21,895 nt of DNA from a bacterium (lineage in GTDB: Bacteria > Krumholzibacteriota > Krumholzibacteriia > LZORAL124-64-63). The notes beneath the pieces were generated by a model, which saw only the letters and a program-made list of their open reading frames with translations, was not told where the DNA came from and ran no database searches. Positions 6,655 through 13,559 of this stretch are shown here, one piece after another; position 1 is the stretch's first letter, and every line of letters starts with the position of its first letter. The stretch covers positions 1 to 21,895 of the forward strand of contig JANOEP010000052.1 in NCBI GenBank assembly GCA_031441465.1. Direction: 5' to 3'. The position numbers and the translations under genes were made by a program.

Positions 6655-7659
6655 ATGTCGCTGCTCGACCAGGAACGGGTCCAGCTCTGGGCCCTGCAGA
6701 AGATCATCGGGGACGAGTTGTCCCGCTTCGACGCCGCCTACGACGGCCTCGTGCGCGGCGAGACCCCCCTGATCGAGGAAGTCTGCGCCCACGTCAAGCA
6801 GGGCCGCAGCAAGCGCTTCCGGCCCACCCTGCTGCTGCTCACGGCCAAGCACGACGCCCCGACGCCGCAGGATGCGGTGCTGTGCGCGGCCTGCGTCGAG
6901 ATGATCCACACCGCGACCCTGCTGCACGACGATTTCATCGACGAGGCGCTGACCCGTCGCGGTCTGCCCTCGGTGAACCAGGCCTGGGGACCGGCGACGG
7001 CCCTGGTCATGGGTGACTACCTCTACAGCAAGGCCCTGGACTGCCTTAGCGGCGCCGGCCTGCACGGGGCCCTGCGGCTGCTGGCCGGCACGACGCTGAA
7101 AATGAGCCAGGCCGAGATGATGCAGATCGAGACCCGGCACGACCTCGCGCTCACCGAAGAGCGTTACCACGACATCATCCTGCGCAAGACGGCGTCCCTG
7201 ATCGAGTCCGCCTGCGCGATCGGGGCGGGCTTCAACCCGGCCGCGGTCCGGCACGTCGAGGCCTACGGGGAGTTCGGCCGCATGATCGGCTTCGTGTTCC
7301 AGATCACCGACGACATCTTCGACTTCCTCGGCGACGAGCGCCGGCTGGGCAAGCCCACCGGTCAGGACTGGGAGGAGGGCCGCATCACCCTGCCCCTGAT
7401 CGCCGCGCTGCGCGACGCGCCCGAGGAGCGGCGGCGGCGCCTGCTCGACCGCGTGACGGGCCTCACGGGAGCGGCGCGGGCCGAGGCCTGGACCGAGGTC
7501 AAGGACTTCGTCCTGGAGCACGGCGGGACCGACTACGCCCGCGGGAAAGCCAAGGAATACGGGGACCGAGCCAAAGCTGCGATCACTACCGTCGCCACGG
7601 GAGTCCAGAGGGACCTGCTCGTCGTGTCGGTCGATTATGTCCTGCGCCGTCTCAACTGA
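6655..7659 (+). CDS. Trans-polyprenyl diphosphate synthase (long-chain, IspB/HepT-like)
   Basis: Motifs KRFRP, first Asp-rich motif TATLLHDDFIDEALTRRG, GDYL, KTASL, second Asp-rich motif FQITDDIFD and GKPTGQD..EG..TLP. Confidence 0.93.
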   Translation: MSLLDQERVQLWALQKIIGDELSRFDAAYDGLVRGETPLIEEVCAHVKQGRSKRFRPTLLLLTAKHDAPTPQDAVLCAACVEMIHTATLLHDDFIDEALTRRGLPSVNQAWGPATALVMGDYLYSKALDCLSGAGLHGALRLLAGTTLKMSQAEMMQIETRHDLALTEERYHDIILRKTASLIESACAIGAGFNPAAVRHVEAYGEFGRMIGFVFQITDDIFDFLGDERRLGKPTGQDWEEGRITLPLIAALRDAPEERRRRLLDRVTGLTGAARAEAWTEVKDFVLEHGGTDYARGKAKEYGDRAKAAITTVATGVQRDLLVVSVDYVLRRLN

Positions 7660-9909: not shown

Positions 9910-10818
9910 ATGAGCATCCTGGTGGTGGGATCGGTCGCTTACGACACCGTCGAGACGCCGCGCGAGCGGCGCGAGCGCCAGCTCGGAGGCAGCGCCAGCT
10001 ACTTCGCGCTGGCCGCGGCGCGCTTCGCGCCGGTGCGCGCCGTGGGCGTCGTGGGCGGCGACTTCCGCGCCGAGCATCTGGCGCTGCTGGACTCCCGCGG
10101 CGTCGACACCGCCGGGATCGTCCGCCGCGAAGGCCCCACCTTCCACTGGGCCGGCCGCTACCACGAAGACCTGATCGAGCGCGACACCCTGGCCACCGAA
10201 CTGGGCGTATTCCAGGACTTCGCGCCGCAACTGCCGGACGATTGGCGGGAGACGCCCTACCTCTTCCTCGCCAACATCCACCCGGCGCTGCAGGCGGACG
10301 TGCTGGACCAGATGGTCGCACCGCGCCTGATCGTGCTGGACACGATGAACCTCTGGATCAAGTCGACGCGCCGCGAACTCCAGGAGGTCCTGGCCAGGGT
10401 CGATGTCGTGCTGCTGAACGACGGCGAGGCCCGCCTGCTGAGCGGGCAGCGCAGCCTCGCCGCGGCGGCGGCGACGATCAAGGAACTGGGACCGGCCCGG
10501 GTCGTGATCAAGAAAGGCGAGCACGGTGCTCTGCTCTTCGGCCGCGATTCCCTGCTCTCGGTGCCCGCGTTGCTGCTGCCCGAGGTCGTCGACCCGACCG
10601 GTGCGGGCGACTGTTTCGCGGGCGGCTTCGTGGGGTACCTCGCCGCCGCGGGTGCGACGCGGGACGACGACGACCCCGTCTTCCGACAGGCCATGCTCGC
10701 CGGCACGGCGGTGGCATCCGCCTGTCCGGAGGCCTTCAGCGTGGACGGCGTGCTGGCCCTCGACGAGGCGAGCTACTCCCAGCGTTTGGCGACGTTGGCC
10801 GCCATGATGTCCCCTTGA
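9910..10818 (+). CDS. PfkB/ribokinase-family carbohydrate or nucleoside kinase
   Basis: N-terminal VVGSVAYDTVETP and LGGSASY, DTMNLWI, KKGEHGA, and the PfkB signature VDPTGAGDCFAGG. Confidence 0.93.
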   Translation: MSILVVGSVAYDTVETPRERRERQLGGSASYFALAAARFAPVRAVGVVGGDFRAEHLALLDSRGVDTAGIVRREGPTFHWAGRYHEDLIERDTLATELGVFQDFAPQLPDDWRETPYLFLANIHPALQADVLDQMVAPRLIVLDTMNLWIKSTRRELQEVLARVDVVLLNDGEARLLSGQRSLAAAAATIKELGPARVVIKKGEHGALLFGRDSLLSVPALLLPEVVDPTGAGDCFAGGFVGYLAAAGATRDDDDPVFRQAMLAGTAVASACPEAFSVDGVLALDEASYSQRLATLAAMMSP

Positions 10819-10956: not shown

Positions 10957-11883
10957 ATGGACGAGATGGAGGGTCCTGCCTTGGAAGAACCCCGCAACGA
11001 TGATCTCGAATGGGTCAAGGACGCGGAACGATGGATCTGCCAGATCCAGGGTATCCGTCAGTGCAAGATCGACATCGACGAGTCGGGCAAGGTCGCCGGC
11101 ATCCACGTCATCGCAACGACCGCCCGCGAGCCGCGCCATGTGGTACGCGACGTCGAGAGCCTGCTGAAAGCCCGCCTGGATCTGGACGTCTACTACAAGA
11201 AGATCGGCGTCGTGCAGATCATCGAACCCGACGAAGTTGTTCCGGCGGCCGTCGCGCCGGCACCCGCCGTCCCGGCGTCCGCCGTCTTGGCGTCCGCCGT
11301 CTTGGCGCCCGCCGTGCCTGCGACCAGCGTGGCTGCGACCAGCGTGGCGCACGACACGGTGAAAGCGCCGCTCGTCTCCGAGCCGGTGTTGCCCCCACCG
11401 CTGCGGATCCCCGAAGTCCCGAAGCCCCACGTCGTGGCGCGTCCGGCCGTCCTGGTCGAGGAGGCCGCGGCGCCGCGCGTGGAGTGCGCGGGCGTCGGCG
11501 TGATGACCGCCGGCGCGGCCCTGACCGCCACGGTCGAACTGGCGCGCGGCGTGGCCGTGGCCAGGATTCAGGAGACGGGGCCGAACCACCCGGGAACCGA
11601 CCAGCTACTCGTGAGTCGCGCGGCGGTCCGCGCCCTGGCCGACCTGCTGGACGAGTCGGCGACCCTGAGCCTGGCGGACCTGCGCGAGACCGAGATGGCC
11701 GGCGAGCGGGTGACCCTGGTCGCGGTCGATCTGGTCGAAGGACGTCGCAGTGAGCGCTTCTTCGGCAGTTGTTCGCAGCGCCACGGGCCGCACCAGGCGG
11801 CCGTCTACGCCGTTCTGGACGCCCTGAACCGGCGCCTGGACCTCATGAACTTCAGGGAAGGGGGGGACAGACCCTCCGACTGA
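10957..11883 (+). CDS. Uncharacterised protein: N-terminal alpha/beta domain, Pro/Ala-rich linker, C-terminal domain
   Basis: 308-aa ORF with GC3-rich codon use and an RBS. Globular-looking N-terminus (IQGIRQCKIDIDESGKVAGIHVIA...VVRDVESLL...YKKIGVVQ) and a C-terminus ending AAVYAVLDALNRR. Confidence 0.85.
   Translation: MDEMEGPALEEPRNDDLEWVKDAERWICQIQGIRQCKIDIDESGKVAGIHVIATTAREPRHVVRDVESLLKARLDLDVYYKKIGVVQIIEPDEVVPAAVAPAPAVPASAVLASAVLAPAVPATSVAATSVAHDTVKAPLVSEPVLPPPLRIPEVPKPHVVARPAVLVEEAAAPRVECAGVGVMTAGAALTATVELARGVAVARIQETGPNHPGTDQLLVSRAAVRALADLLDESATLSLADLRETEMAGERVTLVAVDLVEGRRSERFFGSCSQRHGPHQAAVYAVLDALNRRLDLMNFREGGDRPSD
11263..11352 (+). repeat. Six degenerate 15-bp in-frame tandem repeats (PAVPA/SAVLA/SAVLA/PAVPA/TSVAA/TSVAH)
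   Basis: Units: CCCGCCGTCCCGGCG, TCCGCCGTCTTGGCG x2, CCCGCCGTGCCTGCG, ACCAGCGTGGCTGCG, ACCAGCGTGGCGCAC. Confidence 0.8.
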
Positions 11884-12007
11884 CCACGGATCCGGCCGAC
11901 TGCGGGGCCGGCGCCTTAGGAGCGAGCGGAGCGGATCGGATTGAAAGGAGCGGAGCCGCCTCTTGTCGTGTGGACAACCACTACGTCCGACATCTGGAGG
12001 TGAGATC

Positions 12008-12052
12008 ATGCTCGACTTCATTCTGAAACTGTTCTATCGGTGGGAGTGGTAG
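12008..12052 (+). CDS. Small ORF, 14-aa hydrophobic/aromatic peptide MLDFILKLFYRWEW
   Basis: GGAGGTGA Shine-Dalgarno at 11996-12003 (GGAGG 7 nt before ATG 12008), TAG at 12050-12052. It lies in an otherwise unexplained intergenic gap and is below the ORF-track cutoff. Confidence 0.7.
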   Translation: MLDFILKLFYRWEW

Positions 12053-12096
12053 TTTCTTGACCACCCCGGCGCCGGTCCCGCTTTACACTCAAGAAC

Positions 12097-12125
12097 TTCA
12101 CTTCTGCGGCCGAACCTAATATCTT
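12097..12125 (+). promoter_or_regulatory. Possible internal sigma-70 promoter for the HD-GYP gene
   Basis: TTCACT (12097-12102), 17 bp, TATCTT (12120-12125) in a locally AT-richer stretch. Confidence 0.3.
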
Positions 12126-12176
12126 GTCAGGAGTCTCCGCCCGCGGGGGCGTTTCCCGAGCCAAGGATCCCGCACC

Positions 12177-13559
12177 TTGAGCCACGCGAGACCCGATCGC
12201 AGCCACCGGCTGTTCCACGCCTATTACGCCGCTGTGCTCGCGGCCAGCGTCGTGCTGGTCGGCTTCCTTGTCGTGGCCCGCCGCCCCGAGAGCCAGGACT
12301 GGCTCGGCTGGGGCTTCTACTTCCTGATCCTGCTGCTGGCCGACACCAAGCTGTCGGAGTCCCAGGCCCGCGACGGGAGCAAGATCCTCTCTTCGCGCAC
12401 CCTCGCCCTGTCGGTGCTGGTGCTGTTCGGCCCCCTGGTCGCCGTTGCGATGGACACGGGCACTTCGCTGGTCCGCGGCCTGCTGCTGCGCCGGTCACCG
12501 GCGCGCAAGATGTTCTTCAACATCGCCATGCTGGCCCTCGCGGACGGGATCGCCGGTCTGATCTATCACGCCCTGCCCTTCCATGACCGCTTTACCACGC
12601 CGCTGTTCCTGCTGCCGTTGGCCGTCGCGCTGGTGACGTACTCCCTGGTCAACAGCCTGATCGTGACGGGGATCATGAGCCTGGATTCGGGCCTGCCCGC
12701 CCGCGAGATCTGGCACCGCGACATCCGCTGGGGCGCGCTGACCGGGCTGATGGAACTGCCGTTCACCGCCATCGTCATCCTGCTGTTCCAGCAGGCCGGC
12801 CCCTGGACGCTGATGATCTTCGTGCCGATCATCTGGGTCATCTTCTCGCTCGGCCGCGCGCACAAGCAGCAGAAGGAAGCCCACATGGCGTCGATCGCCG
12901 TGCTGGCGACGACCCTCGAGGCCGACGAACCCTACACGCACGGCCACAGCTACCGCGTCAGCCAGTACGCCGTGACCATCGGCCGCGCCATGGGCATGTC
13001 GCCGCGCAACCTCGAGGTCCTGGAGTACGGCGGGTTGCTGCACGACATCGGCAAGATCGCCATCAACAACGACATCATCTGCAAGCCCGGACGCCTGACC
13101 GACGAGGAGTTCGCGACCCTGGCCGAGCACCCGGCCATCGGCGCCCGCATCGTCGAGCAGATCAAGTTCCTGCCCGAGACCGTGGACATCGTGCGGCACC
13201 ACCACGAGCGCCCCGACGGCAAGGGCTACCCCGACGGCCTCAAGGGGGACGAGATCACGCTGGGCTCGAGCATCATGAACATCTGCGACGCCTTCGACGC
13301 CATGACCAGCGACCGCTCCTACCGCAAGGCCCTGCCCGTGGAGCGGGCGCTCGAGGAGCTGGTCAAGCACCGCGGCACCCAGTTCAACGCCGCGGTGGTC
13401 GACACCGTGCTGGCCCTGCACCGGCGCGGCGAGTTCGACATCATCCCCGATTCCGCGGTGGAGAAGGTCATCCGCCAGATCCAGCGCGTCGGCGAACCGC
13501 CGGTCCGGGCGGTGCCCACCCCGACCAAGGAAGACCCGGTCCATGAAGTACAGCGATAG
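12177..13559 (+). CDS. Membrane-anchored HD-GYP cyclic-dinucleotide phosphodiesterase
   Basis: About 6-7 hydrophobic segments in the first ~225 aa, then EADEPYTHGHSYRV, LLHDIGK, HPAIGA, HHHERPDGKGYPDGL and DAFDAMTSDRSYRK. TTG start after AAGGA. Confidence 0.93.
   Translation: MSHARPDRSHRLFHAYYAAVLAASVVLVGFLVVARRPESQDWLGWGFYFLILLLADTKLSESQARDGSKILSSRTLALSVLVLFGPLVAVAMDTGTSLVRGLLLRRSPARKMFFNIAMLALADGIAGLIYHALPFHDRFTTPLFLLPLAVALVTYSLVNSLIVTGIMSLDSGLPAREIWHRDIRWGALTGLMELPFTAIVILLFQQAGPWTLMIFVPIIWVIFSLGRAHKQQKEAHMASIAVLATTLEADEPYTHGHSYRVSQYAVTIGRAMGMSPRNLEVLEYGGLLHDIGKIAINNDIICKPGRLTDEEFATLAEHPAIGARIVEQIKFLPETVDIVRHHHERPDGKGYPDGLKGDEITLGSSIMNICDAFDAMTSDRSYRKALPVERALEELVKHRGTQFNAAVVDTVLALHRRGEFDIIPDSAVEKVIRQIQRVGEPPVRAVPTPTKEDPVHEVQR

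Follow-up and report, generated by a model that had tools for sequence, protein, structure and literature searches.

The window analysed here, a stretch of 21,895 nt of bacterial DNA, contains a gap of 293 nt between two long genes. Upstream of the gap is a gene of 308 codons (10957-11883), an ORF for which family searches find no Pfam or NCBIfam family, and downstream of it, on the forward strand, is a 460-codon gene (12177-13559) assigned by Pfam to the HD-GYP c-di-GMP phosphodiesterases that carry a MASE9 domain. Within the gap, also on the forward strand, is a micro-ORF of 14 codons plus stop (12008-12052), with the ATG at 12008-12010, the TAG stop at 12050-12052 and MLDFILKLFYRWEW as its product. 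Aromatic residues occupy five of its 14 positions (F4, F9, Y10, W12 and W14), and a hydrophobic core of about seven positions is flanked by D3 and by the tail [KR]-[WFY]-E-W. The ATG at 12008 opens the frame of the micro-ORF only, the next long ORF being the HD-GYP gene that starts at 12177. A Shine-Dalgarno (SD) sequence, GGAGGTGA (11996-12003, forward strand), precedes the ATG at a distance of 4 nt. The initial annotation had described a Trp-ended ORF of 14 codons behind a well-spaced SD, with 5 aromatic residues in 14, and both its coordinates and its translation are reproduced. Genome-wide, GGAGGTGA is followed by ATG at 3-8 nt at 17 sites, compared to one in a reversed-sequence control. 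The ribosome site of the micro-ORF is rare and top-class, and the organism does use such sites.

The DNA of the gap was searched against 41 relatives. Three of the four matches from beyond the genus span almost precisely the SD plus micro-ORF (query positions 113-171), and a 14-codon ORF behind GGAGGTG is present in all ten loci from this search. A pattern of SD, ATG, ten free codons, W-E-W and stop is matched in 31 of the 91 genomes of the family, once in each, with no matches to the reversed pattern. Across the class, the same strict pattern is found in none of the 117 genomes outside the family. When the tail is relaxed to [KR-like][WFY]EW, 39 of the 208 phylum genomes (Krumholzibacteriota by their titles) and 16 of 28 genera have matches, and again none appear with the reversed pattern; lengths of 12-17 codons were allowed in this search, and only 14-codon matches came out. 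All 39 carriers belong to one family, and each has a single copy, except for one MAG, in which two copies are located at contig ends. When 185,579 species representatives are scanned with the relaxed tail and the length fixed at 14 codons, 62 loci are obtained. Thirty-seven of these are members of the family, in MAGs titled Krumholzibacteriia or Krumholzibacteriota, 'bacterium' or, apparently by mislabelling, 'Fibrobacteraceae'; the other 25 are unrelated, and have in-frame stops or are polar. Nowhere among these species is the micro-ORF family found outside Krumholzibacteriota-type MAGs.

Variation among the family members follows the reading frame. Thirty-five loci carry 33 distinct DNA versions that encode 30 distinct peptides, all of 14 codons, with the SD, the ATG and a TAA or TAG stop retained across the family; within the SD, GGAGGTG is unchanged in every aligned leader. 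The family consensus is M-[LI]-x-[FWY]-[ILV]-x-x-[LIFM]-[FLM]-x-[KR]-[WFY]-E-W. Position 14 is invariably Trp and position 12, the other Trp codon of the window's copy, is W, F or Y. Over codons 2-10, which the search pattern leaves free, summed column entropy is 8.15, 5.30 and 12.93 at codon positions 1, 2 and 3, respectively, and position 2 is mostly T. Variation at third positions together with T at second positions is the mark of a hydrophobic peptide under selection, and indicates that the frame of 14 codons is a genuine gene, conserved, unannotated and probably translated. The claim of a micropeptide gene made in the initial annotation is therefore strongly supported by the fixed length, the kept SD and start, the third-position variation and the 30 similar peptides: homologous loci do contain short ORFs led by a ribosome site and ending in W or WxW, with synonymous-biased variation. 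In RNA-labelled sequencing runs, contigs of an approximately 92% relative cover 11564-12409 and 11901-12345 at flat depth; they may be DNA carry-over, and are not taken as a sign of transcription or of transcript ends. These contigs come from two runs of one study, and four RNA-labelled runs each hold small shares of the stretch.

The locus is strictly conserved in its surroundings. PfkB-type kinase, 308-aa protein, micro-ORF and HD-GYP follow one another wherever a locus has enough sequence, at 30 of 31 loci for each flank, and the sole locus with no HD-GYP gene after the micro-ORF runs off at the contig end. In 38 of 39 genomes the micro-ORF is at one syntenic place in single copy, and this synteny spans 16 genera. 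The conserved neighbours of the locus are housekeeping genes (ArgRS, PfkB-type kinase and PurM). Among 32 genomes without the strict pattern, six have a K[FY]EW variant followed by HD-GYP, and in the other 26 purM directly follows the 308-aa gene, the micro-ORF and HD-GYP both being absent. In a tree of the 308-aa protein (51 rows, seven short rows, L012, L018, L032, L073, L077, L170 and L171, being left out), these 26 genomes fall in essentially one clade. The joint absence was considered as evidence of coupling between the micro-ORF and HD-GYP and then dropped; it says little on coupling because the tree shows only one or two events, and it is counted here as a single loss.

The protein encoded downstream matches PF20972 (MASE9) with 32.8 bits (cut-off 24.3), PF13487 with 123.5 bits, and PF01966. 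HD and GYP residues are intact in the translation (HHERPDGKGYP, LLHDIGK), and these matches identify the protein as a MASE9-HD-GYP c-di-GMP phosphodiesterase with intact motifs. The genome has no other MASE9 match. The protein is a member with the MASE9-HD-GYP architecture that is described in passages of Galperin and Chou (bioRxiv 10.1101/2021.11.05.467447), where MASE9 is proposed to bind a ligand within the membrane and the only member studied is said to have had no clear role; no upstream micro-ORF or leader RNA is mentioned in those passages.

Between the micro-ORF and the HD-GYP gene is a promoter-like motif, CTCAAG-N15-GCCGAAC (12088-12115, forward strand). It is of the type of the sigma-28 (FliA) promoter consensus, and relaxed matches are present in this interval at 25 of 35 loci, versus 1 of 35 reversed controls. 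FliA itself is present in the genome (273 bits, cut-off 189.6), and motifs of this type are also seen upstream of the genes for flagellin (CTCAAG-N15-CCCGATA), a CheY-like receiver, a GAF-GGDEF protein and an HDOD protein. We read the motif as a FliA-type promoter of HD-GYP, which would place the enzyme in the motility regulon. As this promoter is downstream of the closing helix described below, at least some HD-GYP transcripts would lack the micro-ORF, the RNA of which would be a separate unit. A search of 11700-12400 reveals no simple terminator or sigma-70 promoter between the micro-ORF and HD-GYP.

The micro-ORF is enclosed by an RNA unit of approximately 175 nt, closed by a covarying helix, P1. 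The 5' arm of P1, GGGGCCGGCGCC (11904-11915, forward strand), starts 21 nt past the stop of the upstream gene, and the 3' arm, GGCGCCGGTCCC (12068-12079, forward strand), starts 16 nt past the stop of the micro-ORF. RNAalifold on 34 leaders joins 11904-11913 with 12070-12079, and the extension to 11904-11915/12068-12079 consists of two further pairs judged by eye. In the pair counts, 97% of cells are paired and 7 of 10 pairs have changed on both sides; none of 500 shuffles is as high on any measure, and slid partners are paired in at most 52%. The 3' arm begins 1-20 nt past the micro-ORF stop across the leaders, and with lineage-specific extensions P1 is 19-30 bp long, ending 1-3 nt past the stop in some genera. 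Between the stop of the upstream gene and the 5' arm there are 8-20 nt across loci. As this leaves no space for a promoter, the micro-ORF RNA is probably made with the upstream gene or from within it. A sigma-54 promoter over the 3' arm was also considered, and was dropped because the GG-N10-GC spacing, judged by eye, fits some genera and not others.

Two GAGCGGAGC boxes are found within P1. Box 1 (GAGCGGAGCGG, 11924-11934) is nearly invariant in the leader alignment, which also defines box 2 (GAGCGGAGC, 11948-11956), both being on the forward strand. The genome has a CsrA gene and the boxes were considered as CsrA sites, a reading that was dropped because the same boxes are present in actinomycetes, which to our knowledge lack CsrA, and because the double box is found at this locus and nowhere else in the genome. 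Two hairpins inside P1 (H2 and H3) are placed on the basis of single-sequence folds and an alignment of actinomycete leaders. RNAalifold draws no pairs on the segment from box 2 to the ATG, where the hairpins misalign. Single-sequence folds of the same segment pair five or more of the seven SD bases in 28 of the 34 leaders, with a mean z of only -1.36, and CGCCTC (11957-11962, forward strand) is the predicted anti-Shine-Dalgarno that would mask the ribosome site. When whole leaders are folded, the pyrimidine-rich ORF can pair with the purine-rich boxes. At the gathering score neither the window nor any of 20 related loci has an Rfam match, and a permissive scan of 11800-12300 (E up to 10) gives two matches, both at chance level.

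A small hydrophobic peptide, a long-range helix between the 5' and 3' ends and predicted sequestration of the SD are features that resemble those of the hok and aapA1 mRNAs. The locus might accordingly be a type I toxin-like module, in which the mRNA is locked by 5'-3' pairing and SD masking and the link to MASE9 is simply inherited gene order. The element is however single-copy and strictly syntenic over 16 genera rather than patchy or multicopy, it recurs beside MASE9 in another phylum, as described below, and no antisense promoter or terminator was noticed in passing at the locus. We also know of no type I toxin as short as 14 residues, and a toxin module seems very improbable here.

MASE9-HD-GYP is not restricted to the family that carries the 14-codon ORF. 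A single-copy gene of this type is present in 91 of 113 genomes from the other families of the phylum, located behind a homologue of the 308-aa protein. In two of these families it is preceded by Trp-tailed ORFs: 19-20 codons long and ending WW at four of five loci in family f5, and 11-19 codons long and ending KW at four of four loci in family f6. All of these have strong SDs and long-range helices of quite different sequence. By pattern match, AGCGGAGC-type boxes are present at 7 of the 8 ORF-bearing loci of f5 and f6, versus 1 of 21 loci without an ORF. In families f3, f4, f7, f8 and f9, no Trp-tailed ORF precedes MASE9-HD-GYP at any of 21 loci; thus, the peptide is not required by the MASE9 sensor as such.

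Trp-tailed ORFs are also found upstream of MASE9 in a second phylum. In an actinomycete class, MASE9 is above the Pfam cut-off in 35 of 151 genomes, and a sample of 151 Myxococcota genomes contains no MASE9 match. An upstream ORF of 19-34 codons with W within its last four residues is present at 22 of 30 actinomycete MASE9 loci, the tails being typically GWxW plus 0-3 residues. Under a strict rule that demands ATG and an SD-like site, 17 of the 30 loci still have such an ORF, compared to one on the reverse strand and none in a downstream stretch (each out of 30). Ten of these peptides (20-33 aa) have no family in Pfam or NCBIfam, the best match being at chance level (E 0.65). The relatives of 24-34 residues carry hydrophobic stretches long enough to span a membrane. 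The partner is MASE9-HD-GYP (three checked) or MASE9-GGDEF-EAL, and at L175, L182, L186 and L189, which comprise the GGDEF-EAL type and one further HD-GYP group, the ORFs occur without AGCGGAGC boxes. The Trp-tailed ORF thus follows the MASE9 domain across output domains, partly without the RNA boxes. At locus L188, one subtilase-like ORF is located upstream of a MASE9 gene.

The folded RNA recurs together with many of the actinomycete ORFs. Fifteen aligned leaders share a long-range helix of approximately 20 bp, with arms that resemble those in the window (GGGAyCGGC / GCCGGTCCC), and the alignment predicts 34 pairs, of which 19 have changes on both sides. The order of elements is helix arm, AGCGGAGCGG box, hairpin with an AGCGG loop, SD, ORF and 3' arm. 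The AGCGGAGCGG box is invariant in all 15, is drawn by RNAalifold as a GC-GGA-GC mini-hairpin, and is also carried by box 1 of the window. Conservation of boxes and helices in sequence across phyla, and the capacity of the ORF to pair with the purine-rich boxes in whole-leader folds, would suit a structured RNA, either regulatory or small, that contains the reading frame incidentally. The three-base periodicity of variation with T kept at second positions, the invariant SD, ATG and stop, the frame kept over 30 different peptides, and the occurrence of Trp-tailed ORFs without boxes all argue against an RNA-only element, which we consider very unlikely.

The Trp-rich tail and short length had also suggested a RiPP-like precursor with a WxW motif to the initial annotation, and an exported signal or RiPP-type precursor with its enzymes encoded elsewhere would share these two features. 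Beyond them little fits. Fourteen residues do not accommodate a leader/core organisation, the relatives vary widely in length and in sequence except for the tail, the conserved neighbours are of the housekeeping kind, and a Pfam scan of the eight ORFs of the window reveals no modifying enzyme or transporter. We consider such a precursor the least credible of the explanations weighed here, and that part of the initial annotation is not upheld.

The main alternative is that the micro-ORF acts in cis as a leader peptide. A ribosome at the last codons or the stop would hinder formation of P1, and so alter read-through, processing or stability of the RNA into HD-GYP and purM. Sensitivity to charged tRNA-Trp could come from the terminal Trp codons, or ribosome stalling from the nascent peptide, and the GC helix of 12-20 bp could be a site for RNase III. 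P1 is strongly supported, and its inner extension reaches 1-3 nt past the stop in several genera. An ORF enclosed by a conserved fold, with the 3' arm beginning 1-20 nt past the stop, has the form expected of a cis-acting leader, which also counts against the peptide acting as a product. A T-run follows the 3' arm in L007, L012, L014, L018, L019 and L022, and a T6 in the actinomycete L184. Every family member has at least one Trp codon among its last four codons, and in the phylum AGCGGAGC-type boxes accompany the ORF (7/8 vs 1/21). MASE9 genes without an ORF in other families are as expected of an optional regulatory add-on.

Leader peptides of 14 residues do exist. In the passages of the literature on trpL of Sinorhizobium (PMC7298713, 10.1101/606483), the ORF similarly has 14 codons, late Trp codons, a strong SD and a structured RNA, and its product, peTrpL, is described as a 14-residue leader peptide that also acts in trans. 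Unlike trpL, the micro-ORF has no local terminator/antiterminator pair, the gene downstream is not one of Trp biosynthesis, the closing helix spans the whole ORF from about 100 nt upstream, and the whole peptide is conserved rather than the Trp codons alone.

Several observations count against a cis-acting leader. There is no terminator-like site in 12052-12177, and most leaders have no T-run. Whereas the alternative hairpins of classical attenuators are local, the 5' arm of P1 precedes the SD by approximately 100 nt, and the FliA-type promoter of HD-GYP is downstream of P1. HD-GYP and purM are unrelated to Trp supply, W12 is replaced by F or Y in three genera, and N-terminal halves of the peptides are kept at the amino-acid level with synonymous changes. 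Additionally, constitutive translation is the norm for leaders that act as sensors, while masking is predicted for this ribosome site, and some MASE9 loci have a Trp-tailed ORF without boxes. The initial annotation had offered a regulatory uORF sensing Trp or aromatic amino acids as an alternative; the structured RNA around the ORF keeps this alive, but the lack of a nearby terminator and of Trp-related genes downstream speaks against it. Overall, cis action as a leader seems unlikely, though it is to be taken seriously.

The best explanation, in which we place slightly less than even confidence, is that the micro-ORF is translated into a micropeptide and that this peptide targets the MASE9 sensor of the adjacent HD-GYP enzyme. 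In its favour are the conservation of the N-terminal half as well as the tail, the masked SD, the separate promoter of HD-GYP, the association with the sensor and the published proposal of an intramembrane MASE9 ligand. The folded RNA, with P1, its boxes and hairpins and the predicted anti-SD, would mask the strong ribosome site, and such masking suggests that synthesis of the peptide is probably switched, not constitutive. Once made, the peptide would most likely sit at the membrane interface, where it may bind to the intramembrane sensor domain MASE9, affect the activity of the enzyme and so tune the breakdown of c-di-GMP. The partner would be the sensor rather than the enzyme or the RNA, because the ORFs precede both output types and some loci are without boxes. 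Its role would be that of an accessory input, not of an obligatory subunit. The initial annotation had proposed a ligand or modulator of the HD-GYP sensor, which gains from the recurrence of the ORF upstream of MASE9; the role as a ligand stays conjectural, and the 0/21 loci in five families weigh on the other side. The peptide product and the cis-acting leader are not mutually exclusive.

MgrB-PhoQ, SafA-PhoQ, KdpF-KdpABC and AcrZ-AcrB are examples of small membrane proteins that modulate sensors or transporters, being approximately 30-50 residues long with a full transmembrane helix. The micropeptide would resemble them as a tiny hydrophobic product that is beside, or acts on, a polytopic membrane protein and is optional for its partner, and in having aromatic or basic residues at the end of the helix. 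It differs in that its 14 residues, with a core of about seven, are not of membrane-spanning length, which counts against the micropeptide reading, and in that its gene is wrapped in a conserved RNA fold. The partner would also differ, being a MASE9 c-di-GMP enzyme, a type that is not known to have a small partner of this kind.

A complex prediction was carried out, without alignments, on a 34-aa actinomycete relative and its own MASE9 domain. The outcome speaks weakly for binding, with a score of 0.34 compared to 0.02 for the best of three controls, at least 70% of contacts shared between runs and a partner pLDDT of 52 or higher. Among 78 solved complexes 51 reach this mark, as do 2 of 108 mismatched pairs, but passes at 0.60 or below include only 5 of the 78 solved complexes and all 4 mismatches that passed. 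Passes with so low a score are wrong more often than they are right, except where the guess was likely from the start.

More broadly, Trp-tailed micropeptides may be the missing input of MASE9, forming with it an ancient, RNA-gated peptide-to-c-di-GMP pair common to Krumholzibacteriota and Actinomycetota, a proposal that we make tentatively and with more doubt than belief. The gating RNA, with its long-range helix, GC-GGA-GC boxes and masked ribosome site, may itself sense a signal. In the passages of the literature covered on MASE9, on HdgA and the HD-GYP proteins of Streptomyces, and on leader peptides of HD-GYP genes (including PMC6205966), no upstream micro-ORF or leader is described. The module is new relative to Rfam, to Pfam and NCBIfam (via the longer relatives) and to the literature searched.

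As a membrane sensor domain MASE9 is widespread among c-di-GMP enzymes but has no assigned signal, and the presence of a conserved micro-gene with an RNA fold directly upstream, in two phyla, offers a testable handle on the input of this sensor. The 14-residue product would be among the smallest gene products selected as a peptide. Its gene is missed by ORF callers, as annotation pipelines exclude such genes by design. If the cis-regulatory reading is true, the locus would instead represent an undescribed class of leader RNA that controls the turnover of a second messenger.

The protein encoded upstream of the leader (308 aa, window 10957-11883) has a conserved C-terminus (…LDAVNR…) and no family match in Pfam or NCBIfam. 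A homologue is present in 84 of the 91 genomes of the family, and in other families the gene directly 5' of MASE9-HD-GYP encodes one at nearly all loci examined; there may be a functional tie between the two proteins. In the family-level tree of the 308-aa protein, the clade that has lost both the micro-ORF and the HD-GYP gene comprises genera g2, g3, g6, g8, g17, g19, g37 and g39, and perhaps g11. No MASE9 match is found genome-wide in this clade (E up to 1e-4), and thus the sensor has been lost rather than relocated.

A single MAG, G012 (loci L013, L109 and L116), carries the micro-ORF twice, one copy ending in KWEW and the other in KFEW. The copies lie on contigs C8 (94206-94264) and C19 (33993-34051), both at contig ends, and represent either strain heterogeneity within the bin or a true duplication. 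A tandem pair of related Trp-tailed ORFs of 31 and 34 codons, both transmembrane-like, is seen 5' of a MASE9-GGDEF-EAL gene in the actinomycete locus L182 (1008-1216).

The leader may carry its own promoter. Actinomycete leaders (L172-L201, e.g. L190:1052-1100) have a conserved TTGACAACTG(C/A)AGAG directly 5' of the long-range helix, and those of family f5, in Krumholzibacteriota, have TTGACA approximately 30 nt 5' of the helix 5' arm. However, the actinomycete spacing disagrees with a promoter reading. In genomes without the HD-GYP gene a sigma-70-like CTTGAAC-N17-TATCAT is located immediately 5' of purM, and several genera carry a similar TTGAnn-N17-TTAATC/TTATAT overlapping the 3' arm of the helix. 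In the window, the last 17 nt of the HD-GYP gene (13543-13559) are shared with the beginning of purM, and therefore purM, a purine synthesis gene, is an operon member behind a flagellar-type promoter.

The FliA-type motif 5' of the HD-GYP gene (CTCAAG-N15-GCCGAAC, window 12088-12115) has 14 matches in the window's genome, versus 3 in a reversed control. It is also found 5' of flagellin, CheY-like receiver, GAF-GGDEF and HDOD genes; one site outside the window is on contig C46 (about 6658-6685). The same contig encodes CsrA (10058-10210), approximately 3 kb from the flagellin gene, whose 5' leader contains AAGGA-type motifs, one of them at the ribosome site; the arrangement is similar to the CsrA-flagellin circuit of Bacillus. 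The distribution of the FliA-type motif suggests a sigma-28 regulon joining motility and c-di-GMP in the uncultured phylum Krumholzibacteriota.
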